Assembly: GCA_963699175.1 (NCBI GenBank) | Contig: OY969418.1 | Span: 2,205,352-2,269,351, forward strand | Direction: 5' to 3' | DNA: 64,000 bases | Origin: an uncultured Acidobacteriota bacterium | Lineage (GTDB): Bacteria; Acidobacteriota; Blastocatellia; RBC074 | In this document: positions 4,055-61,726 of the stretch, one piece after another | Position numbering within the stretch: position 1 is the stretch's first letter | Layout: each line of letters starts with the position of its first letter | Made by a program: the position numbers and the translations under genes | The notes under the pieces: generated by a model | What the model saw: only the letters and a program-made list of their open reading frames with translations | The model's database searches: none | Told to the model about the DNA's origin: nothing

Positions 4055-4188
4055 GCGTGACATGGCTGAGCGCAGCCGCTCTATGCTCAGCCATGTCACG
4101 GCCACAATGGAGTGAGTAGGGGCAGACCTATGTGTCTGCCCCAATTGGTTGCGCACGAACTGGGGCAGACACGTAGGTCTGCCCCTAC
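4055..4188. terminator. pair of GC-rich palindromes between convergent genes (likely bidirectional terminator)
   Basis: gtgacatggctgagc/gctcagccatgtcac (4058-4100). A 27-bp inverted repeat gtaggggcagacctatgtgtctgcccc / ggggcagacacgtaggtctgcccctac (4117-4188); each arm is itself palindromic. Confidence 0.4.
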
Positions 4189-8703: not shown

Positions 8704-8880
8704 AGCCTGGGTACGCACGCTTCCAGCGTGCCAAGCTCTGGGTGAGACGGAAGGCAAGAGCAAGAACCACTCGGCTCGCTTGATTGATTGGCAGATCGAA
8801 GTGGGGGATAAGTTGATCGCGTTACCCTGATGCGCTCGCCTTCCCAAACGGGGCACGCTGGAAGCGTGCGTACCCAGGCT
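8704..8880. repeat. 29-bp perfect inverted repeat flanking a ~119-bp spacer (palindromic element, family Y)
   Basis: agcctgggtacgcacgcttccagcgtgcc (8704-8732) and its exact reverse complement (8852-8880). The right arm overlaps the stop of the upstream gene. The core AGCCTGGG..GCGCACGC recurs at 19366. Confidence 0.5.
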
Positions 8881-9316
8881 AAGGTTTACGTGGCACGCTC
8901 TTCGGTTTGTTAGTCTCTTCGGGTTTGGCGGGCGAAGTCTCTTTAGGCTTTTCAGCCTTTTGCACCGCCGCCAAGCGTTCCGTCAACCGGTCAACTTCTT
9001 TCTGCATGTCCAACATCTGCTTTTGCAAATGGACTATCTGTTGCCCGTGGTCGAATAGTTGGCGCTGCAATTCGAGCACTCGCTCTTGGCTGTAATTGCT
9101 TGTGCTGCCCGTGTTGAGCGACTGGTTCTGCTGCGAGCGCTCGACGTAATCAAGTCTCGTTTGCATCTGATCTACGCGGCGTTCCAGGTTCATCAAGCGA
9201 AAGCTTTGATCCTGGCCAAAGCGCGTGGCCGCACCCAACGATAGCAGACTCAAACACAACAAACCCGTGAGCGCCGTGCGCCAATTACGTTTGATGGGAA
9301 ATCTCATTGCTCTCAA
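8879..9316 (-). CDS. secreted coiled-coil protein, hypothetical
   Basis: Signal-peptide-like N-terminus MRAMRFPIKRNWRTALTGLLCLSLLSLGAA. Heptad-rich, Q/E/L-rich middle. Lys/Pro-rich tail. Confidence 0.45.
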   Translation of the reverse strand: MRAMRFPIKRNWRTALTGLLCLSLLSLGAATRFGQDQSFRLMNLERRVDQMQTRLDYVERSQQNQSLNTGSTSNYSQERVLELQRQLFDHGQQIVHLQKQMLDMQKEVDRLTERLAAVQKAEKPKETSPAKPEETNKPKSVPRKP

Positions 9317-9488
9317 CCTCCATTGCTGTCATCAGCGTGCTTTACTGAAACCAATTTGTTAGTCTTCTGCGTCTACTGAACGTGACAGTTCTGGCACAAC
9401 TGGTTTCCGAATTGCAAGCCCTAGCAATCTGCCGTTTGCGACGGGAGACATCAAAGCAGGAATGCACGCCTGCGACTAAATCGAATTG

Positions 9489-9575
9489 GTGCGGTACAGG
9501 GAGCGGTAGCGACCTGCTGGATTCGTGAGGTGCACGCTCCCGCAGTACCAGGTCGCTACCGCTCCCGTACCGCAC
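9489..9575. repeat. palindromic intergenic element, family X copy 1
   Basis: gtgcggtacagggagcggtagcgacctg ... caggtcgctaccgctcccgtaccgcac; ~28-bp arms with a 32-nt loop. Confidence 0.6.
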
Positions 9576-9597
9576 CTGCTTCCTACAGAGGACTTCG

Positions 9598-12478: not shown

Positions 12479-12617
12479 GTTCGACAAGCTGCCAGCTTGT
12501 CGGCAGTCTCGGCATAAGACCCAATGGTCTTCCGGCTGAGACTGCGATTCGACAGTCTTGACGTTGAATCAATCGAGCGCCAACCAAGTCTGCCGACAAG
12601 CTGGCAGCTTGTCGAAC
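12479..12617. repeat. 28-bp inverted repeat flanking an 83-bp spacer (palindromic element)
   Basis: gttcgacaagctgccagcttgtcggcag / ctgccgacaagctggcagcttgtcgaac. The arm core gacaagctgccagcttgtc is itself a palindrome. Confidence 0.5.
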
Positions 12618-12631
12618 AACTTCATCACAAT

Positions 12632-14089
12632 ATGAAAAAGACACTCGTCACCCTGCTAGCTTTGCTCTGCCTCAGCGCGTATCCGCAAGAGCGCGCCGCC
12701 ACGCGCCCCAACTTCATCCTCATCATCGCCGATGACATGGCCTGGGACGATTGTGGCGCTTATGGCCACTGCACTATTCGCACACCGAATCTTGACCGGC
12801 TGGCACAGAGCGGCTTGCGCTTTGACCGCGCGTTCGTTACATCCAGTTCGTGCAGCCCAAGCCGCGCTAGCCTCATCACCGCGCGCTACCCGCACAGCGC
12901 CGACGCAGAGCAGTTGCACTGGCCAGTGCCTGCCGAACAGACGACCTTTGTCGAATTGTTGAAAGCCGCGGGCTATTGGACGGCAGCGGCGGGCAAGTGG
13001 CATTTGGGCGATGCTATTCGTAACCGCTTCGATCTGGTGAAAGAGGCCGACCCGGCGGGCTTCATCCTGCCGCGTCCCCCAAACGTAGATCCGAAAACGC
13101 TGGACGTAAGCGGCACCGGCGAATGGCTCAACCTATTGCGGCAACGACCAAAGGATAAACCGTTCTTCTTGTGGCTGGCAGCATTCGATCCGCACCGCGA
13201 TTATGAAGAAGGGATCATAGCCAAACCACACACGCTGGCTGATGTAGTCGTTCCGCCTTACTTGCCCGACACGCCTGGAGTGCGCAAGGAACTGGCGCTC
13301 TATTACGACGAGATCACACGGCTGGATGAGAAGGTGGGCGAAGTGCTCGCCGAGTTGGACAGACAGCAAGCGGCGCGCGATACGCTGGTCATGTTTGTGA
13401 GCGACAACGGTCGCCCCTTCCCGCGCGCGAAGACGACGCTGTTTGACAGCGGCATTCGCACGCCACTGATCGCGCGCTGGCCGGGCAAAGTCAAAGCTGG
13501 CGGCGTAACGCGCAGCCTAGTCAGCACGGTTGACATTGGGCCGACGCTCTTGGAATTGGCGGGCGTCAAATTGTCGCCGGCATTTCAAGGCCGCAGCTTT
13601 GCAGCAGTCTTGCGCAACCCACAGCGCCAAATCCGCGACGCTATTTATGCCGAAAAGAACTGGCACGACTACGAAGACCGTTCGCGCGCCGTGCGCACGG
13701 CGCGCTTCAAATACATTCGTAACTATTACAATGATCTGCCGCTGACGCCCTCCGCCGATGCCTGGCGCAGCCCAACGGGGCAGGCATTTCGCCACTTGCG
13801 CGACGCGGGCAAACTCACGCCGCAACAAATGGTCGTCTTCCAGACTCGCGCTGCCGAAGAGCTTTACGACACCGTCGCCGACCCAAACGAGTTCCACAAT
13901 CTGGCCGGAGATGTGCGCTATGCCGCGACGTTGAAAGCAATGCGGGAGAAGTTGCAACGTTGGGAGACCGAGACTGCCGATCGTGCGCCGCTACGCCGCA
14001 CGCCGGATGAGTTCGACCGTGAGACAGGAGAACCGTTGCCTAATCGCCCAACACAGCGTCCCGGCAAGCAAGCGTTCTTCAGACCGTGA
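12632..14089 (+). CDS. sulfatase (formylglycine-dependent arylsulfatase family), secreted
   Basis: Start at MKKTLVTLLALLCLSA signal peptide. C-x-P-x-R signature SCSPSRASLITARYPHS. N-terminal IIADDMAWDD metal-binding region. Confidence 0.85.
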   Translation: MKKTLVTLLALLCLSAYPQERAATRPNFILIIADDMAWDDCGAYGHCTIRTPNLDRLAQSGLRFDRAFVTSSSCSPSRASLITARYPHSADAEQLHWPVPAEQTTFVELLKAAGYWTAAAGKWHLGDAIRNRFDLVKEADPAGFILPRPPNVDPKTLDVSGTGEWLNLLRQRPKDKPFFLWLAAFDPHRDYEEGIIAKPHTLADVVVPPYLPDTPGVRKELALYYDEITRLDEKVGEVLAELDRQQAARDTLVMFVSDNGRPFPRAKTTLFDSGIRTPLIARWPGKVKAGGVTRSLVSTVDIGPTLLELAGVKLSPAFQGRSFAAVLRNPQRQIRDAIYAEKNWHDYEDRSRAVRTARFKYIRNYYNDLPLTPSADAWRSPTGQAFRHLRDAGKLTPQQMVVFQTRAAEELYDTVADPNEFHNLAGDVRYAATLKAMREKLQRWETETADRAPLRRTPDEFDRETGEPLPNRPTQRPGKQAFFRP

Positions 14090-14092
14090 ATG

Positions 14093-14180
14093 GTGCGGTA
14101 CCGGGAGCGATAGCGACCGGGTAGGCTGGCGGTGATTGCCTCATGTGCGCAATATATCCGGTCGCTATCGCTCCCGGTAC
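14093..14180. repeat. palindromic intergenic element, family X copy 2
   Basis: gtgcggtaccgggagcgatagcgaccgg ... ccggtcgctatcgctcccggtac. The right arm supplies the last five codons and stop of the adjacent dgoK-like gene. Confidence 0.6.
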
Positions 14181-15142
14181 TGTATAGCTATTTGCCGCAG
14201 GCCGGTCAGGAAACCCCGTTCAACTGCCGCTTCATCAAGCAGCCTGACTTCAATGCCAGACGCAGCCAACACATCCCGCCAAGCTTCCGCAAGCGCGCCG
14301 CCACCCGTAATGAGGACTTGCCGCAACAACCCGCGCCGCAACCATGCATCCAAATCCGCCGCCAAATAAACGCCCAGCAAAAAAGCGAGCCGCTCTTCTG
14401 GCGTGCTCGCAGTGCGTTGTTCGAGCAAGCGCACACAGAATAACGCGCGCGGCAAACCGCTTTGCCGTTGCTCGTGCATCCCAGCTTCGAGCCAGTGCCG
14501 GTCAATCTTTTCCGGCCTGGTTTGCGGCACGGAGTCGGCCAGGATGGTTTGCGTTTGCGTCGTGTGAATCAACTCGCCGGTCAAGCTAGTCAGGCTGGCG
14601 GCGATGCGCGCCGTGTCGTCGAGTTGAATGAGCTTCCAATGCGAGCCGAGATTGAGCAGCGTAGCGCCCGGCGCGAGCAAACCGAGCGCATGCAATCCGA
14701 CGCAGAGCGTCTCTTCACCCCGCATCACATCCGCCGCGCCGATGGTTTCAGCATCGCATTGCGCAGGGCCGGAACGCACGCCGGGCACGAGCAGGACAGG
14801 CAAGTCAGTGATGTGTGGGAAGCGATGTGTTTGAGTAGCCGCGCTCAAATCGCTCAAAGCTGCGGGCGCAGCGACGTGCGGCACTTCGGCCAAGCCAAGC
14901 GGTGAAGTAATCATTCCGGCGGCCAACACGGTGCGCGGTGCTGAGCCTGGCGCTTCTGCTCGCACTTGCGCAATCAATTCGCGCAAAGCTTCGTGCAGAC
15001 GCGCGGGCGAGCCGTCACGCGCCGTATCGCGTACGCCGACGCTGGCGCGCACGTTGGCGACGCTCTCTTCACCAACCGTCAGCCAGACGCGCGTGTTGGT
15101 AGTGCCGGTGTCAATACAGATCAAACAATGAAGATCGTTCAT
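14165..15142 (-). CDS. dgoK: 2-dehydro-3-deoxygalactonokinase-like sugar kinase
   Basis: N-terminal [15 protein letters not shown] matches the DgoK I-D-W-G-T-[ST]-N-x-R-x-W-L motif. ~320 aa. 4-nt ATGA overlap with the downstream aldolase. Confidence 0.7.
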
Positions 15143-19305: not shown

Positions 19306-19365
19306 AGCGAAGCTGTTACTCTTGCGCCTCCTTGTATCACTGAATCCAATAGAAAAGTAAAGCCT

Positions 19366-19471
19366 GGGAGCGCACGCGGCTCGCGTGCGGCGTCGAGAGG
19401 CGCGACATTTACTTCAATGTATCTCTTCCGCAATCCCCGCACGCGAGCCGCGTGCGCTCCCAGGTTTGCAC
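19366..19471. repeat. 25-bp perfect inverted repeat with 56-nt loop in a divergent promoter region (family Y-related)
   Basis: gggagcgcacgcggctcgcgtgcgg / ccgcacgcgagccgcgtgcgctccc. Shares AGCCTGGG.GCGCACGC with the 8704 element. Confidence 0.5.
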
Positions 19472-41216: not shown

Positions 41217-41359
41217 GAATTTAGCCCGGTGTTTCAACGCCGGGAAAGATCAGCAGCAAGTCCCGCGTCGCGTCAGCGACGCCTGATTCAAGCGTCGCTG
41301 ACGCGACGCGGGACTTGCTGCTTGCACATACCGTGGGTTGAAAACCCACGGCTAAATTC
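41217..41359. repeat. 143-bp nested imperfect palindrome with a 31-bp perfect core stem
   Basis: Outer arms gaatttagcc / ggctaaattc. Inner hairpins cccggtgtttcaacgccggg and ccgtgggttgaaaacccacgg. Core agcagcaagtcccgcgtcgcgtcagcgacgc (41252-41282), loop ctgattcaa, then an exact reverse complement (41292-41322). Confidence 0.6.
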
Positions 41360-47798: not shown

Positions 47799-48236
47799 AT
47801 GAATGGCTCTAGCGATAAAAAGCTCCGCGTCCTGATTCTCTGCACCGGCAATTCCGCGCGCAGCCAGATGGCTGAAGGCCTGTTGCGCCATGACGGCGGC
47901 GAACGATTTGAAGTTTACAGCGCGGGCACAAAGGCGAGTATTGTGCGGCCTGAAGCGATTCAAGCGATGCGCGAGATCGGCATTGACATCTCGCAGCACC
48001 GCTCAAAACAGCTCGATGAATTTTGGGGGCAGGAGTTCGATTACGTCATCACTGTCTGCGACCACGCGAACGAAGTCTGCCCCGTCTTCCCCGGCAAGAC
48101 ACGGCGCATTCATCAGAGCTTTGAAGACCCGCCTGCGCCCGGCGTCGGTACTGACGAATATCGGCTGAGCATCTTTCGGCGCGTGCGCGATGAGATACGA
48201 ACGTGGTTGCGGAGCTTCACCGCCGCTACCGAATGA
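47799..48236 (+). CDS. ArsC-type arsenate reductase / low-molecular-weight phosphotyrosine phosphatase family (thioredoxin-coupled type)
   Basis: P-loop CTGNSARSQMAEG. Second cysteine pair TVCDHANEVCPVF. Confidence 0.75.
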   Translation: MNGSSDKKLRVLILCTGNSARSQMAEGLLRHDGGERFEVYSAGTKASIVRPEAIQAMREIGIDISQHRSKQLDEFWGQEFDYVITVCDHANEVCPVFPGKTRRIHQSFEDPPAPGVGTDEYRLSIFRRVRDEIRTWLRSFTAATE

Positions 48237-48255
48237 AAATTGGCTGGAGACGCCA

Positions 48256-48285
48256 AGGGCGCACCATCGAGTGCGCCCTTTTTGA
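48256..48285 (+). terminator. rho-independent terminator
   Basis: agggcgcac..gtgcgccct stem plus a T5 run. Confidence 0.55.
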
Positions 48286-48333
48286 TTAGCGGTACTCTAA
48301 ATCAAAACATACAAGATTGGGACACACACTGGG

Positions 48334-48420
48334 TGCGGTATAAGTAGCGGTAGTGATCTGGTGTTGCGGGAGCGTACGCCTTGTGAGTTCACCAGGTCGC
48401 TACCGCTACCTGTACCGCAC
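48334..48420. repeat. palindromic intergenic element, family X copy 3 (inverted orientation, diverged arms)
   Basis: gtgcggtataagtagcggtagtgatctggtg ... caccaggtcgctaccgctacctgtaccgcac. The loop resembles the reverse complement of the copy-1 loop. Confidence 0.55.
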
Positions 48421-48464
48421 CAATGTTTACAGAAATCCTGGTGTCATCTCACCGCTATTCACTG

Positions 48465-51400
48465 CTATCTCACTGTGAAAGCGTTAGCTTTAGTGCTTGA
48501 GCCACCGTCAGGATTAGTGACCGTGACATCGCGCACCGACCTGATGGCATTGGTGGAAACTCTGATGGTGGCCGTCAATCTTGTGCTTGATTCGTACCTG
48601 GTAAAGATCGTTAGCCCAAAACCTTCAATGCTGATCTTAGCTTGCGGCACGAAGCCATCGCCGATAATGGTTAGCGTAATCCGCTCTCCTGGATCGGCAA
48701 AGCCTGGATAGATCTGATCAATCTTGATAGGAATACGAACTTGATGCGGTTCGTCAGATGAAGAACTGGCATTGAAGTTCGTGTCGCTTGCATAGCTCGC
48801 TCGCAACGTTCTAGCGCCAGCCGTGCTTAGCGTTAGCACACAACTCCCCGCAGTCACAGTGCCGGTGCAGGAATCTACCCCATCAGTTATGGTGACATTG
48901 CCTGTCAGTGTACCGCTGCCCGAAGCGTTAGCAGCAACCTGATAATTGACTGTCACCTGCTGGCCAACCAGAGATGGATCAGGCGTATCGGCGATGATCG
49001 TAGTCGTCGTGTTTGCTCGCGCTATCGAGAAAGTCCGCGCGACGTCCGGGGCCGGGCTGAAGTTCGCGTCGCCCGCTTGTGAAGCGGTGATAATGCAGCT
49101 TCCGGCTCCGGTGAGTGTGACAACGGCTCCATTCACCGTGCAATTGCCGCTCGCCGCAAATGACACAGGAAGCCCTGAGCTGGCAGTAGCCGACACCGCG
49201 AAAGGAGCATCGCCAAAAGTCTTGTTCGCTAACTGAGCGAAACTGATCGTCTGGGTTGGAGTATCAATGATGGTGACGGTCGCGGTGCCATTCGCGCCGA
49301 CATCATAGCTACCCGTGTCTCCCAGGATCAGAGTTAAAGTTTCATTGCCTTCCACCAGGTTATCTTTGACCGGTGTGATCGTGATTTCGACAAATGATTG
49401 GCCGGCAGGGATCGTTGCCGCGCCCGTGAGCGTTGGCGTGTAATCAGCGCTCGTGGCCTGTCCTGGCCCAGTGGCGATGGTGTAGCTGGCAGTCAACGGC
49501 CCAAGCAAGCTGCCAGTGCGAGTAATGCGGAAAGTACCGGTGTTGTTTCCAGTTTCCGCCGCGTTGGCGTCTGTGGCCGTGATGTTGATGATCGGTGTTG
49601 ACGAAGCGCCGATGGTTCCGGGAGAGCCGATTTCAGTGCTGTCATTTGCTGCGGCGAACGCGCCATTGCCCCCAACCGCACTCAAAAGCGAAATAGTAGT
49701 GTTGTTCAGTCCAGCCGCATTATCAAAGGTCGGGAATGGGCCGGTGGGAGAAGCGCCAAAGGTCACGCTTGCCTGCACCGCACCTGCGCTGTCGAACAGA
49801 TTGACCTGATCGCCTCCGGTGCTTAGGCCGATGCCTGCGCCGCTGTAGCTGCCGATTCGCAGGCTGGTCGGCGGATTGGCGCCGAACCAAAGAGTCTTGA
49901 AGGCGGCGCTCTTGCCGGCGAGATCGGTGGTTTCCAGGAAAATTACCGATTCGCCAGGGGCAATGCTGGTGATGCCATTCAACTCTACCGCGGTATTGAA
50001 TGAGCGCGAGTCATCGTCCACCCTCCAGCCGACGATGGTCGCAGTGGCGGTGCCTACGTTCGTTACCTCGAACCAATCAACGGCAAGACTGGGAACGCTA
50101 TTGCCGCTTGACCAGGGTGCCACCTCGGAAATGATGAGCGAGGCGCTTCCACCCACAGAGGGTGTAACCATCAGGATATAGTTAGTGGTTGCATCCGGTG
50201 TGCTGCCGACTGCGGGGTCATCTACATTGACGGCGACGTTGTAGGCGGGCTTGACCGTAGAGTTTAGAGCGACTCCCGCTTTCAGATACAACGCCGTACC
50301 GATAATCTGGAAAGCATTAGCGTCTGTTCCGGTAACAGTCAGGTTGTTGCGCCCAAGTCCGTCGTCAGTAACGATAATGTCCGCCAATTTAACTGGTGCC
50401 GCGGTGCTGGTATTTGCCGGAATCGAAGTGACAGTATTGTTCAGCCTGATTGCAGTTGGCGCTAGGTTCGGAGCGGTGGACGGCGCATAAACCCAAAGCT
50501 GCGGATGATCCATGTCACCGCCGCCATTCTCGCTCACCACGTAAAGGTTGCCATCGCGATCCATCGTCAAGCCTTCATGAGTCTGGTCAGCAACAGACAA
50601 AGGATTGCCGGGATCGGCGACGATCGTCATCCTACTGAAGACGGTTCCGGATCGGTCAGTGTTAATGATCTGACCTGATTCCTGGCTCAACACTAGCAGA
50701 TGGCTGAAATCGGGTTGTCCAGTCAGGGACGGCAGATTCGACAGCGCGAACACGTCAGAAAAGTCCGCCAGGTTGGCCAAAGCCGGATTGAACAGATTGG
50801 TCGAACCCGTTGCTGTCGGCGAACCGTTGGTCGCGGTTTTAGCGACAAAATCAATACCGGTCTGGAAAATTGATTGTGGGTCCGCCTCTTTGACGAAAAT
50901 AAATCCGCTGGTCAGCGGATCATAGGAGAGGCCTTCAAGCCCAATGTTTCCGATTGTCGTGCCGAGTTTGACGGTTTGCACGTCAGTTCTACGCAGAATG
51001 CCGCCGCCTACATACGTGAACAAATTGACTTGCCGGTCTCTCTCCTCTACCAACACGAACTTGCCGCCGCCCACATAAGTGATGCCTTCCGGATCGAAAA
51101 ATTCCGTGCCCTGTGCGCTTGAACCAGGAGCCAGCGTCATGGTGTCAATCAGTTGCCCGGTTTTCGTGACCTGAGTCACGGAGGTGCCGCCATCGCCTGT
51201 GATAAACAAGGTATCGGTGTCCCAGTTGTAGGTCACCCCCGAGGCTTCTTGCGCCAGCACATTGTTGGGTGGATGGGCAGTCCGCGTAGGTTCAGGCAGA
51301 TCGAAGCGGCCGATCCTGACATACGTGGATAGATCAACTGAGGTAACTGGTGCTGCGGCCCTGGTAACATGTCCGCCTAGCCCTGCCTGGACACGTTGAA

Positions 51401-51479
51401 TTGAAAGGCCCGCGACCGTGCCGAGCACGAGGGCAATCATAAGTAGGAAGGCAAATAGTTTGGAAAATCCTTTGTTCAC
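48465..51479 (-). CDS. large secreted multidomain surface protein (beta-propeller/phytase-like N-domain, lamin-tail-like domain, Calx-beta, Ig-like repeats, C-terminal IPT/TIG)
   Basis: Signal peptide MNKGFSKLFAFLLMIALVLGTVAG. LTD-like LIISEVAPWSSGNS...DWFEVTNVG...GWRVDDD. Calx-beta-like TFRITRTGSLLGPLTASYTI...ADYTP...VEGNETLTLIL. Terminal IPT-like ...VTVTNPDGGSS...FTV. Domain names are from memory. Confidence 0.7.
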   Translation of the reverse strand: MNKGFSKLFAFLLMIALVLGTVAGLSIQRVQAGLGGHVTRAAAPVTSVDLSTYVRIGRFDLPEPTRTAHPPNNVLAQEASGVTYNWDTDTLFITGDGGTSVTQVTKTGQLIDTMTLAPGSSAQGTEFFDPEGITYVGGGKFVLVEERDRQVNLFTYVGGGILRRTDVQTVKLGTTIGNIGLEGLSYDPLTSGFIFVKEADPQSIFQTGIDFVAKTATNGSPTATGSTNLFNPALANLADFSDVFALSNLPSLTGQPDFSHLLVLSQESGQIINTDRSGTVFSRMTIVADPGNPLSVADQTHEGLTMDRDGNLYVVSENGGGDMDHPQLWVYAPSTAPNLAPTAIRLNNTVTSIPANTSTAAPVKLADIIVTDDGLGRNNLTVTGTDANAFQIIGTALYLKAGVALNSTVKPAYNVAVNVDDPAVGSTPDATTNYILMVTPSVGGSASLIISEVAPWSSGNSVPSLAVDWFEVTNVGTATATIVGWRVDDDSRSFNTAVELNGITSIAPGESVIFLETTDLAGKSAAFKTLWFGANPPTSLRIGSYSGAGIGLSTGGDQVNLFDSAGAVQASVTFGASPTGPFPTFDNAAGLNNTTISLLSAVGGNGAFAAANDSTEIGSPGTIGASSTPIINITATDANAAETGNNTGTFRITRTGSLLGPLTASYTIATGPGQATSADYTPTLTGAATIPAGQSFVEITITPVKDNLVEGNETLTLILGDTGSYDVGANGTATVTIIDTPTQTISFAQLANKTFGDAPFAVSATASSGLPVSFAASGNCTVNGAVVTLTGAGSCIITASQAGDANFSPAPDVARTFSIARANTTTTIIADTPDPSLVGQQVTVNYQVAANASGSGTLTGNVTITDGVDSCTGTVTAGSCVLTLSTAGARTLRASYASDTNFNASSSSDEPHQVRIPIKIDQIYPGFADPGERITLTIIGDGFVPQAKISIEGFGLTIFTRYESSTRLTATIRVSTNAIRSVRDVTVTNPDGGSSTKANAFTVR

Positions 51480-53419: not shown

Positions 53420-53697
53420 CCCTGGCTGACGCAGGAACACCTATGCTTCTTATCCCTGGTTTTGTATTCTGCTCCCAGGCTTAGCCCTTAGGCACTGTCT
53501 TCGCAGCTCGCCACCGCTGCCCGCTTCATCAGGAAAAAACTGCGAAGATAGAGGTCGTCAGATACCCACAACTTTGTCGCTGCCCTTCTTTCTTTGGGCT
53601 TTTACCGATTGAGTTACACGACTTGGAAAGTTATCCCCTTGCGTAGAGTGTCCGTCAAAGTTTTGCACACGGGGAAACGGACTGTTCGGCACGCGTA

Positions 53698-54137
53698 GCG
53701 CAATCTGCCGAGCATTCGTTTCTACACAAGTCCGCGCTCCTCTAGCTCCGTAGGAGCGCAATGTTTATAGCATCGTAAGCCAGCGCAGCGTTTAGCTCCG
53801 TAGGAGCGGCATCTGCTAGCCTCAGATGCCGCTCCTACGGAGCTAGGAGGCTATTGACGCAACCCCCTAAAAACATTGCGCTCCTACGGAGCGGGGAAAA
53901 TTTGTGTAGAAACGAATGCTGCCGAGGTTGCGCCGCTGCGTTGCCGAAGTGATGGGGGAAACGGATATATGTGATGTGAAGCCGCGCAACCTCGGCAGCT
54001 AAAGTTTCTACACAAGTCTGGTGCTGGCTCGTAAGTCCTTTGCTTTGAGAAATGGCATTTTCGACGCGAGCGCCATAAGTCCCTTAGAATTGGCACAACT
54101 CAAACTTGTGTAGAAACTTTAGCTCGGCAGGTTGCGC
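53698..54137. repeat. complex of four ~32-bp repeats in alternating orientation, forming two large hairpins with nested inner palindromes
   Basis: Four copies of gcgcaa(t/c)ctgccgagc(a/t)...gtttctacacaagtc: 53698-53732 (+), 53902-53933 (-), 53984-54018 (+), 54104-54137 (-). The first loop holds further inverted repeats built on ctccgtaggagc, and gcggcatctg ctagcctca gatgccgc. Confidence 0.6.
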
Positions 54138-54227
54138 TACGCAGGTTCAGCCATCTGATCACGGAGTGGTAACTTTCCAAAGTCGTGAACTGGACCGCTT
54201 TGCGCTACGATTGCCGAATGTTCAGTC

Positions 54228-58854: not shown

Positions 58855-59047
58855 CCGGGCCGTCCTCAACACCTCACCCCTAATCACCCTCTGCAAAAGC
58901 GGGCAGGAGTATCTGCTTCCGCGATTGTTCGCTGAAATCGTCGTACCCGACGCAGTCTGGGATGAAGTGCTGGCGGGTAGTGAGGTGCGTATTCGCACGC
59001 AACGTGAACACCGATTCGCAGCCAACGTGAACACCAATTCGCATTGA
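58844..59047 (+). pseudogene. PIN-like (DUF3368-type) toxin gene truncated after ~47 codons by an IS21 insertion
   Basis: 4-nt overlap with the antitoxin stop. N-terminus VLNTSPLITLCKSGQEYLLPRLFAEIVVPDAVWDEVLAGSE matches the partner family. The reading then runs into the IS21 terminal repeats. Confidence 0.55.
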
Positions 59048-59220
59048 TCGTGAACGCCGATTCGCACGTCGTGAACACCGATTGGCAAGCCAGTGAACAC
59101 GGATTCGCACGATCGTGAACGCGGGTGTCGGGCGTGCGCCGCCCGCGCGGAGTGTGCTGGAAATCATTTAGACAGTGCTGGACGCTGTCCTCCTATTTTC
59201 TTCAAGGAGGACTCGCTGCA

Positions 59221-60762
59221 ATGCCAGCACCAAAGATTTCCATGCCACGACTCACTGAACTTTTACGTCTCCACGCCGCCGGGCTTTCACAACGTCAGAT
59301 CGCCCAAAGCCTCGACCTCTCGGTCGGCGTCGTCAACAAATATCTCCAACTCGCCCAAGCGCGCGGCCTCGGCTGGCCACTGCCGGCCGAACTGACTGAA
59401 GCGGCCTTGTGGCAACTGCTGGAAGGCGCGACTACGGCGGCCACCAGCACGCCACTCGCCGCACCTGATTTCTCCCTCATCCATCGCGAACTGCAACGCA
59501 AGGGCGTCACGCGCCTCTTACTCTGGGAAGAGTATGTGGCGGTCTATCCCGACCGGCATTACAGCTATGCACAGTTCTGCCGCCTCTACCGCGAATGGCG
59601 CGCTGGGGTCAAGCCCACCTTACGTCAGACGCAGCACGCCGGCGAAAAGCTCTTTGTGGATTACGCCGGGCAGACCGTGCCGATCGTAGACACGCTGACG
59701 GGCGCAGTCTGGCAAGCCCAAATCTTTGTGGCCGTCTTGGGCGCCTCCAATTACACCTACGCCGAAGCGACCGCCACGCAACGGCTGCACGATTGGGTCG
59801 GCGCACACGCGCGGGCCTTCGCCTTCTTCGGCGGCGTGCCGCAATTAGTCGTGCCGGACAATCTCAAGAGCGCCGTGCGCAAAGCCTGCCGTTACGAGCC
59901 GTTGCTCAATCGCACCTATCAAGAGTTGCTGGCCCACTACAACACCGCCGCTTTGCCAGCTCGCCCCTACAAACCGCGCGATAAGGCTAAAGCCGAAGTC
60001 GGCGTGCAGGTCGTCGAGCGTTGGCTCTTGGCACGATTGCGCCAGCAGACTTTCTTCTCGCTCGCCGAACTCAATCAAGCGTTGCGGCACCTGCTCACCC
60101 GACTCAATGACCGGCCTTTCAAAAAGCTGCCGGGCTCGCGCCGCTTTCAGTACGAAGCCCTTGATCGTCCCGCCTTGCGCCCCTTGCCAGCGCAGCCTTT
60201 CGTCTACGCCGAGTGGAAGAAGGCGCGCGTGCACATTGACTATCACGTGGAAGTCGAAGGCCCTTACTACAGCGTGCCGCACGCGCTGATCCGGCGCGAA
60301 ATCGAGCTGCGCCTCACGGCCACCACGGTCGAATGCTTGTATCAAGGTGAGCGCGTCGCCGCGCATCCACGCTCCGACCGCAAAGGCGCGCACACCACTA
60401 ACCCGGAACACATGCCCAAGTCACATCGCGCCCATCTGGAATGGACGCCAGGCCGCTTCCTCAATTGGGCACTGGAGATCGGTCCGCAAACGCGCGATCT
60501 GGTGCAGCACTTACTGACCAATCGCCCACACCCCGAGATGGGGTTTCGCTCCTGTTTGGGCTTGCTCTCGTTGGCCAAAAACTATGGCAAGCGGCGGCTG
60601 GAAGCGGCTTGTACGCGCGCCCTTGCGCTCGGCTCACCGACGCGCCGTAGCGTCGTCTCGATCCTGGAGAAGGGGCTGGAAAACCAACCGCTGCCGGAAA
60701 GCACGCTCGAATTGCCCGCGCCGCGTCACGCCAATTTACGCGGCGCGGACTACTACTATTAA
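59221..60762 (+). CDS. istA: IS21 family transposase IstA
   Basis: Start [31 protein letters not shown] (HTH) after an AAGGAGGA RBS. DDE integrase-core-like centre (...LFVDYAG...). Confidence 0.85.
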
Positions 60763-60786
60763 CCCATCACACGAAGGAGACCTTGG

Positions 60787-61539
60787 ATGCTCAATCAACA
60801 AACACTCACGCGCCTGCGCGCACTCAAACTCTTCGGGCTGGCTGAGGCCTTGGCCCAACAACTGGAACAACCGCCCACGCAAGCGCTCGCCTTTGAAGAG
60901 CGTCTGGCGCTGTTGGTCGAACGCGAAGTCAGCTATCGTGATAACCGCCGGCTACAATGCCTCTTGCGAGCCGCTAAGCTCAGACAGCCCGCTTGCGTAG
61001 AAGACATTGACTATCGCCACCAGCGCGGGCTTGAACGTACGCTGGTAGCCACGCTCACGAGTTGCGACTGGATTCGCGCCCACCACAATCTGCACATTAC
61101 GGGTCCAACGGGGACGGGCAAGAGTTGGCTAGCTTGCGCCTTCGGTAATCAAGCTTGCCGCCAAGGCTTGAGCGTCCGCTATGAACGCACAGGCCGTCTA
61201 CTCGACCAATTACGCGTGGCACGTGGCGACGGCAGTTACCCAAAACTTTTGCGCCAACTGGCGCGGGTAGAGTTACTGATCCTGGATGACTTCGGGCTCA
61301 AACCGCTCACGCAGACTGAGCGCCACGACTTATTGGAAGTGATTGAAGACCGGCACGGTGTGCACTCGACCCTGCTGACGAGTCAATTACCGATCCGTGC
61401 TTGGCACGAATATCTGAACGAACCGACCGTCGCCGACGCCCTGCTGGATCGGCTGCTCAATGGCGCGCATCGGCTCGAATTAACTGGCGATTCAATGCGC
61501 CAGAAAGAAGCCTTGACCAAAGTGAAGGCAAAGCAGTAG
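60787..61539 (+). CDS. istB: IS21 family helper ATPase IstB
   Basis: Walker [23 protein letters not shown]. Walker B LLILDDFG. 250 aa. Confidence 0.9.
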
Positions 61540-61726
61540 AACTTAAGCGCCAGCGCGCTCCGCGCGCGTTCACGATCGTGCCAATCGGCGTTCATGATGC
61601 TTGCCATTCAGCGTTCATCTTCGTGCGAATACCCACCTGAAGCCATAGAAAAGCATTAGTGGTTTAATCTTAGCAGTTGTATAATCCCTGTCCAATTATC
61701 GAGCCTGTCCATAAAAGGAGTAATTT

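Follow-up and report, generated by a model that had tools for sequence, protein, structure and literature searches.

Dispersed palindromic doublets in an uncultured acidobacterium: a probable REPIN-type family partnered with divergent class 3 Y1 transposases

A 64,000-nt stretch of contig OY969418.1, from an uncultured bacterium of the Acidobacteriota (Blastocatellia) and hereinafter referred to as the window, contains three near-perfect palindromes of ~90 nt (copies 1 to 3; Table 1), whereas chance expectation is none. The question raised by this locus is what kind of element these palindromes are and which enzyme, if any, moves them. We conclude that, in all likelihood, they belong to a non-autonomous family of the REPIN type, i.e., doublets of repetitive extragenic palindromic (REP) sequences that can form hairpins, and that this family is partnered with a divergent class 3 Y1 HUH transposase resembling the REP-associated tyrosine transposases (RAYTs). 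The preliminary description of this stretch had already proposed a recently mobile, non-autonomous element similar to REPs or to miniature inverted-repeat transposable elements (MITEs), a view that is borne out by empty orthologous sites and by a transposase homologue with the same arms in related genomes. All three copies that it listed are present, with boundaries that shift by 1–6 nt only.

Each copy consists of two inverted arms of ~32 nt with a spacer of ~25 nt between them. The arm comprises a foot, C(G/A)GTAC, and a small hairpin with a 4-bp stem, a tandem G·A, a GC clamp and a GGTA tetraloop; the layout of the REP unit is C-N-R-G, GA, GC, GGTA, GC, GA, C-Y-N-G, with the conserved foot GGTGCGGTA or CAGTA. 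Thus, each arm is a foot plus a small hairpin, that is, a REP-like unit, and the complete element is a REP doublet, which makes it a REPIN by definition: an imperfect palindrome of short length, whose conserved 5' foot is unpaired, occurs twice, in inverted orientation and around a short spacer, and the two units together can form one long hairpin. On a single strand, the doublet is foldable either as one hairpin of ~90 nt or as two small hairpins.

The six arms stand out sharply in the window. The pattern GTGCGGTAY-N2-4-KAGCGRTAG matches five of the six and no other site in the 64 kb (0 matches in 100 shuffles), and the 13-mer core AGCGRTAGYGAYC, with at most one mismatch, matches exactly the six arms, against 0.56 matches expected; the arm core sequence is also written GAGCGRTAGCGA, and the arm type GGTGCGGTAC. 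The predicted folds of the copies range from -52 to -68 kcal/mol by strand (+ strand, -67), with z-scores of -8 to -10 per copy relative to dinucleotide shuffles. Copy 3 is inverted relative to copy 1, as had been noticed before, and this extends to the spacer (84% complementarity over 79 nt). Copy 2 has a spacer unlike the others and a CAGTAC-type tip on its right arm (GGTACTGTAT), and the changes in its arms are paired (GCGATAGC and GCTATCGC). No plasmid in PLSDB was matched by the unit in a blastn search.

Conservation of the pairing was assessed by counting the pairs of the structure on a MAFFT alignment of 31 family members. In the long hairpin, 92.8% of the cells are paired and 12 pairs are changed on both sides; none of 500 shuffles reaches the observed level, and slid registers are just 30–45% paired. 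For the small arm hairpins, 94.1% of the cells are paired and the covariation score is 0.255 versus 0.118 in shuffled alignments (0 of 500 reaching it). For example, pair 13:30 of the small hairpin is AU in 14 members, GU in 10 and CG in 6, and pair 14:29 is GC in 22, AU in 7 and GU in 2; over 106 arms, the counterparts of these pairs are CG 36, AT 31, GT 29 and GC 74, AT 16, GT 9, respectively. Covariation supports the long hairpin and the small arm hairpins alike.

Related genomes contain a transposase gene that is accompanied by the same arms. In a metagenome-assembled genome (MAG) of Pyrinomonadaceae (locus L079), an open reading frame (ORF) of 171 aa lies between inverted tandem arrays of the arm, and in Acidobacteria SZAS-15 (L017), a 178-aa homologue with 52% identity has four doublets upstream and two downstream. 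A metagenome scan yielded 80 further loci with transposase homologues, in 33 of which the exact arm core occurs no more than 500 nt from the gene; the arms number 1.52 per kb within this distance versus 0.05 per kb further out, a ~30-fold difference in density. The arms beside genes of the L122/P0005 type match those of the window. Usually, the upstream arm is '+' and the downstream arm '-', both feet pointing outward; the 90-nt element has the same arrangement. In most of the remaining loci of this set, the gene is flanked by inverted repeats built to the same plan, (G)TCAG(T/A)AC - stem - GC-GGTA-GC - stem' - GGGT, and nearly all transposase loci have hairpins on the flanks of the gene. The stems differ among the ~80 loci, mostly in a compensating manner, a sequence pattern that looks like co-evolution of the enzyme with its hairpin. 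Across 192 unique arms, the foot is C (127), A/G (106/72), G (133), A/T (101/77); about half have CAGA, and the rest, including the window copies, have CAGT or CGGT. The suggestion of the preliminary description that a REP-associated tyrosine transposase might accompany the elements is thus upheld for related genomes, where the homologue has the same arms, but not for the window, which encodes none.

The association with Y1 genes bears on the possibility that the palindromes are MITEs of a DDE-type cut-and-paste transposon, such as the IS21-family element that the window contains, with the arms serving as terminal inverted repeats. Such an origin would fit the long terminal inverted repeats, the small size and the dispersal of the elements, as well as the presence of the IS21-family element itself. 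However, the arms bear no relation to the ends of the latter (23-nt CGTGAACACCGATTCGCA repeats), are ~30-fold enriched beside Y1 transposase genes, and contain a covarying internal hairpin that DDE terminal inverted repeats do not need. Moreover, neither of the two sites with a known empty state (see below) shows the target-site duplication seen with DDE MITEs, and we consider this origin extremely improbable. The elements do share with MITEs and with palindrome-associated transposable elements (PATEs) their small size, the lack of genes and the retention of only the ends for a transposase that acts in trans; unlike the PATEs of IS200/IS605, which have distinct left and right ends, they carry at one end an inverted copy of the other.

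The transposase belongs to a large family with more than 5,000 homologues, many of which carry PF01797 or have the JGI name 'REP element-mobilizing transposase RayT'. Members are 165–190 aa long, and all 27 sampled members match Pfam Y1_Tnp (best E-value 1.8e-7). An alignment of these 27 members shows NH[VAL]H (with the N and both H invariant), KANATR, YLW[TN] and Y-V-I-N-G-Q, where the Y and Q are at least 90% conserved. A profile search of the PDB sequences with this protein found no relative. In contrast to this sequence search, the 30 top PDB matches in Foldseek for an AlphaFold (AF2) model of the transposase (pLDDT 81.5) consist of TnpA structures from ISDra2, IS608 or IS200 and of E. coli RAYT 4er8, the latter at rank 6 (E-values of 6e-5 to 4e-3, TM ~0.55–0.68 on the target). 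Accordingly, the predicted fold is that of IS608/ISDra2 TnpA and E. coli RAYT.

The NHVH-type HuH motif, the W motif, the Y----Q motif and the length of ~178 aa place this family in class 3 of TnpA-Y1. In the available text of the source, this class is described from Planctomycetes and Acidobacteria, with NHVH, W[TA], Y----Q and ~178 aa, and its genes have on their flanks several atypical hairpins with a CnGA foot that are dispersed as well, with ~600 copies in Solibacter usitatus Ellin6076 (Quentin et al., 2018; PMC6006769). By that description, the present family resembles class 3 in protein length, HuH motif, W[TA]-type motif, Y----Q and acidobacterial host, and in the several non-GTAG hairpins that flank the gene and are also dispersed. 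The foot of the wider set of arms, C-[AG]-G-[AT], overlaps the published CnGA, the hairpins being compared by description only, whereas the window copies have CGGT or CAGT; likewise, the Y motif is YVINGQ here and YV[VI][AENY]EQ in the published account. The available text of PMC6006769 makes no mention of a doublet organisation, of a GGTA-loop hairpin with tandem G·A or of insertion polymorphisms.

A second group that deserves comparison is TIRYT/TIRtron, tyrosine transposase genes with long terminal inverted repeats that, in the available text of the source, form a sharply defined group in Acidobacteria (Di Nocera et al., 2013; PMC3733652). As described there, these systems are similar in that a single pair of long inverted repeats, without relation to GTAG REPs, encloses a Y1 gene, that moderately abundant dispersed repeats, often dimers, are present, and that Acidobacteria are among the hosts. 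The published hosts, Terriglobus, Koribacter, Acidobacterium and Granulicella, are different ones, and the comparison is by description and not by repeat sequences.

Mobility of the elements follows from comparison with relatives. The convergent junction of a sulfatase gene with a dgoK-like gene (2-keto-3-deoxygalactonokinase, PF05035), where copy 2 is located, is found without the copy in L117, L119 and L120. The homology of these junctions to the window breaks exactly at both ends of copy 2, and in its place they contain 33 nt (six codons, the stop and a 14-nt spacer) that are missing from the window. Similarly, in L121, which encodes an orthologue (90% aa identity) of the receptor next to copy 1, the upstream region is highly conserved, copy 1 is absent, and the comparison indicates that ~17 nt of the target were replaced; in the P0131 contig, the intergenic length is 189 nt, too short for copy 1. 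Given that copies 1 and 2 are missing at orthologous loci of relatives with ~90% or more aa identity, they are recent insertions. At the copy 3 site, synteny is broken in L202 and L203, and the best homologues of its 1004-aa neighbour, P0249 (80% identity) and P0258 (73%), occur in non-syntenic contexts. Judging from these alignments, no fewer than two of the three doublets have reached their very short intergenic spaces recently. Target-site duplications, which the preliminary description had suggested looking for, are absent when empty and filled sites of copies 1 and 2 are compared; instead, 17–33 nt of target have been lost.

These empty sites also speak against the idea that the palindromes are structural or regulatory hairpins of the host, such as terminators, mRNA-stabilising stem-loops or protein-binding sites, that are conserved in place and not mobile. 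The idea is not without appeal: most copies lie 1–30 nt past stop codons or between convergent genes, the predicted RNA forms are extremely stable, G:U pairs are tolerated, and E. coli REPs stabilise mRNA and attenuate transcription according to the available text of Quentin et al. (PMC6006769). Nevertheless, relatives of ~90% or more aa identity lack the elements at orthologous sites, near-identical arms occur at unrelated loci of several genomes, no Rfam family is matched, and there is no T-run: the terminator scan calls none of the elements, and copy 3 adjoins a separate, proper terminator-like site. The sequences are therefore not the conserved gene ends or terminators that would have been expected in relatives under the alternative considered in the preliminary description. 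Taken together, the lack of target duplication, the empty orthologous sites and the lack of a T-run defeat the explanations by DDE MITEs and by terminators or regulatory hairpins; we regard fixed host hairpins as very improbable. A secondary, exapted effect on the neighbouring transcripts is possible and would be compatible with a REPIN-type family.

Three other candidates were set aside. A known structured RNA was dropped after a scan of the whole window at the Rfam gathering threshold matched no family. On anatomy alone, we dropped integron attC sites, with no GTTRRRY/RYYYAAC ends seen and an integrase not searched for, and CRISPR, the copies being single doublets and not same-orientation arrays.

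In one case, insertion has altered a protein. The dgoK-like gene overlaps copy 2, which encodes its end, ATA CAG TAC CGG GAG CGA (IQYRER), followed by TAG; three cluster-mates of this protein with at least 90% identity end in NDRLRN, DDLLRN and DACLKG, i.e., the orthologues diverge exactly at the boundary of copy 2, as the comparison of C-termini proposed in the preliminary description was to reveal. Copy 2 has replaced the 3' end of dgoK and has provided a new six-residue tail and a stop codon. The gene end had indeed been attributed to this copy, but with five codons in place of the six observed.

Copy 1 is upstream of and close to the TTG start (9599) of the receptor gene, which encodes a CarboxypepD_reg/outer-membrane-protein (OMP) barrel receptor, but not immediately before it, as had been stated: a gap of 22 nt, including a GAGGA ribosome-binding site, separates the end of the copy from the start codon. 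The same TTG start is given in the NCBI annotation of the source contig. The proposal that the use of TTG might result from the insertion is not supported, the start codon and the ribosome-binding site both being outside the element; the element-free L121 starts with GTG behind the same CTAC-GAGG motif, so the non-ATG start is older than, and independent of, the insertion. The conserved upstream block suggests that copy 1 lies in the 5' untranslated region of the receptor gene; a sigma-70 promoter scan around the copy found nothing.

The arrangement of many transposase loci invites another interpretation, namely that the elements are MITE- or PATE-like internal-deletion derivatives of an autonomous insertion sequence (IS) with the structure [arm - class 3 Y1 gene - inverted arm], such that the partner would not be a domesticated single-copy RAYT. 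The chemistry would be the same as for a REPIN-type family, the difference being in the evolutionary status of the partner. In agreement with this interpretation, many loci have exactly one '+' arm 44–87 nt upstream and one '-' arm 9–25 nt downstream of the gene, and there are pairs of transposase loci with 80–89% nucleotide identity in which the homology is confined to the gene and the arms despite kilobases of flank (L122/L123, L130/L141, L194/L198 and L137/L148). The available text of PMC6006769 likewise states that class 3 'resembles both IS and REPtrons' and reports three close copies in S. usitatus (Quentin et al., 2018). In contrast, L171, L192 and L176 are syntenic over 2–4 kb at 79–97% identity, as for a vertically inherited single locus, and many genes are flanked by several doublets or arrays (L017, L079, L125 and L173) and not by one clean pair of ends. 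We consider derivation from such an IS possible, if rather unlikely. A bolder version, in which the gene-plus-arms unit is a mobile autonomous element and the doublets are its miniatures, transposing now in Blastocatellia-like Acidobacteria, landing beside stop codons and replacing 17–33 nt of target, with gene termini rewritten in the process, is a speculation to which we give little credence. If it were true, i.e., if the gene-plus-arms unit is mobile and the target is replaced, class 3 would stand, as a functioning intermediate form, between insertion sequences and domesticated REP systems.

REPIN-RAYT systems, with which the favoured reading aligns the window elements, are known from Pseudomonas fluorescens SBW25 and E. 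coli; they are reportedly the subject of Nunvar 2010, Bertels & Rainey 2011 and Ton-Hoang 2012. Both there and here, two inverted REPs with a short spacer form a hairpin of ~90 nt, each REP is a small imperfect hairpin with a 5' foot, and the elements are extragenic, dispersed, non-autonomous and devoid of target duplications. Another shared feature, in the present case in related genomes, is the REPtron, in which these REPs flank the gene for a Y1 HUH transposase. The differences concern the foot, C(G/A)GTAC here and GT(A/G)G in the known systems, and the class of the transposase, whose Y motif is Y----Q as opposed to YxxxNP; furthermore, the transposase here lacks a sequence-detectable PDB relative and scores under the NCBIfam REP_Tyr_transpos cut-off, and the host phylum is Acidobacteriota.

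Several points weigh against a partnership of the REPIN-RAYT kind. The GTAG/GTGG at the foot, the mark of canonical RAYT REPs (class 2 TnpA-REP), is absent; GTAG within GCGGTAGC spans the loop and the 3' clamp, not the foot. The two MAG proteins score 20.5 bits against Pfam Y1_Tnp, where the cut-off is 23, and 18 bits against NCBIfam REP_Tyr_transpos, where it is 80. A tblastn search of the 64-kb window yielded no transposase homologue, and none of the 120 best homologues listed is on the 9,536,885-bp source contig, so the partner gene may be absent from the source genome, degraded or more divergent. To our knowledge, replacement of 17–33 nt of target has not been described for IS200/IS605 or RAYT systems.

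With these reservations, we propose a mechanism modelled on those of IS608/ISDra2 TnpA and E. coli TnpA-REP. The class 3 Y1 enzyme would recognise the small arm hairpin together with the 5' foot on single-stranded DNA, which would be the intermediate; its catalytic tyrosine would cut and rejoin the DNA, and the doublet would be excised and reinserted without target-site duplication. Such a process may still operate in the source genome. In kind, then, this is a REP/REPIN-Y1 transposase partnership, a known type of system, from the poorly described class 3 branch.

The family extends well beyond the window, with its 3 copies per 64 kb. At least 40 full doublets were catalogued in MAGs of Acidobacteriota, Blastocatellia and Pyrinomonadaceae, and at least 12 loci of the family come from the single MAG GFS_6987. 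The underlying pattern scan of the contig collection was loose (18 specified positions and a variable gap over 596 Gb, with an estimated hundreds of chance matches): ~45 of the 116 loci listed are real family members, and copy numbers per genome are lower bounds. The consensus arm of the catalogued elements is GGTGCGGTACAGGGAGCGGTAGCGACCTGGTG, and the spacing between the 13-nt cores is mostly 31–40 nt (range 12–43); the spacers are in part homologous and in part self-complementary. By a crude ORF call, most copies are located 1–30 nt past a stop codon in short intergenic spaces. In the relatives, doublets of a sister subfamily (GAGTCAGTACCGCGAGCGGTAGCGAGCG...) occur in other spacers, including that between the receptor and sulfatase genes, for example at L121:3451-3540. 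In the window, the same spacer (12479-12617) contains a different palindromic doublet with arms GTTCGACAAGCTGCCAGCTTGTCGGCAG..., each arm being a 9-bp hairpin. From such sequence comparisons, the short spacers of this lineage appear to be colonised repeatedly, with fast turnover. The true start of the sulfatase is probably ATG 12634 (MKKTLVTLLALL), not 12524.

Family members are also present in MAGs labelled 'uncultured Heliomicrobium' or Heliobacteriaceae (Bacillota), namely L007, L014, L038, L041, L043, L046, L052, L058, L067, L071, L082, L094 and L112, and in L025, labelled uncultured Heliobacteriaceae. One of these, the 'Heliomicrobium' MAG L071, also encodes a CarboxypepD_reg/outer-membrane-barrel protein (E 6e-154). 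Heliobacteria are monoderm, and an outer-membrane barrel protein is not expected in them. Because of this gene, we distrust the label, which is probably wrong; otherwise, cross-phylum transfer would have to be assumed.

The genomic surroundings of the three copies are as follows (Table 1). Copy 1 is located 171 nt beyond a divergent upstream ORF (8879-9316, - strand), and copy 2 begins 2 nt past the sulfatase stop (14087-14089). The neighbours of copy 3 are a low-molecular-weight phosphatase gene (47799-48236, + strand) and the gene for the 1004-aa SdiA-regulated/Big_3_5 protein (48465-51479, - strand); the separate terminator-like hairpin with its T-run is at 48255-48280, and copy 3 lies ~50 nt downstream of it. 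A Logan short-read contig of run ERR11571147, apparently from the same organism, begins at copy 1 (~9487), and contigs of this run end 31 nt and 72 nt past the sulfatase and dgoK genes, i.e., inside or next to copy 2. These ends are consistent with, and only suggestive of, assembly breaks induced by the repeats.

Table 1. Positions in the window of the palindromic doublets, their parts and the genes of the IS21-family element
Feature	Position	Length	Strand	Remarks
Copy 1, full REP doublet (REPIN-like hairpin)	9488-9576	89 nt	.	5' region of OMP-receptor gene
Copy 1, left-arm foot GGTGCGGTA	9488-9496			Precedes the hairpin at 9497-9516
Copy 1, left-arm REP hairpin CAGG-GA-GC-[GGTA]-GC-GA-CCTG	9497-9516		+	Intra-arm covariation; same design in arms flanking transposase homologues
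Copy 1, right-arm REP hairpin, inverted	9549-9567		-	One stem base short of consensus
Copy 2, full REP doublet	14092-14185	94 nt	.	Wedged between convergent genes
Last six codons and TAG stop of dgoK-like gene	14165-14185		-	From copy 2 right arm
Copy 3, full REP doublet	48332-48421	90 nt	.	Inverse of copy 1; between convergent genes
IstA-like transposase of IS21 element	59125-60762			rve, Mu-transpos_C_2
IstB of IS21 element	60787-61539			PF01695, E 2e-75

Several other repeats were observed in the window. At 4116-4188, 43 nt past the stop of a gene for a 1463-aa WD40 protein, there is an inverted pair, GTAGGGGCAGAC...GTCTGCCCCTAC, which resembles a canonical GTAG-footed REP doublet; given this resemblance, the genome seems to host a second, classical REP family. 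The palindromes at 8704-8880 and 19360-19467 have common AGCCTGGG.A.GCACGC-type arms of 29–31 nt with 97–100% complementarity and appear to represent another dispersed hairpin family. A palindrome with 35-nt arms (97% complementary) is located at 41252-41322, and the 150 nt around it are 77.6% identical to L041:6796-6945, from another MAG, which points to a further shared repeat family. At 53693-54142, four repeats of ~37 nt (GCGCAACCTCGGCAGCTAAAGTTTCTACACAAGT-like) alternate in orientation within 450 nt, an arrangement similar to that of bacterial interspersed mosaic elements; a CRISPR array is excluded here because the repeat orientation is mixed. The IS21-family insertion sequence spans 58990-61620, with multiple 23-nt terminal repeats at 58991-59134 that are inverted at 61554-61617. 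Outside the window, a called 256-aa gene at L203:4565-5335 combines a GFO_IDH_MocA N-terminal part with an IS200-like Y1_Tnp C-terminal part (…HIHVLV…), and is probably a frameshift or fusion artefact of long-read assembly or a classical IS200 inserted in an oxidoreductase gene.

Among intragenomic replicators that are long-lived and inherited vertically, REPIN-RAYT systems have been studied best, and nearly all the work on them concerns Proteobacteria and GTAG-type REPs. The family analysed here provides, for the barely characterised class 3 Y1 transposases of Acidobacteria, a REP unit defined at the sequence level, in which the foot is joined to a stem of 8 positions that includes the tandem G·A and is capped by an invariant GC-GGTA-GC, together with two insertion events for which the empty sites are known, one of which altered a protein C-terminus. 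For annotation, it accounts for contig breaks and odd gene ends in MAGs of the Blastocatellia type. Experimenters gain defined substrates and candidate enzymes with which to find out whether class 3 transposases cut and move such hairpins.

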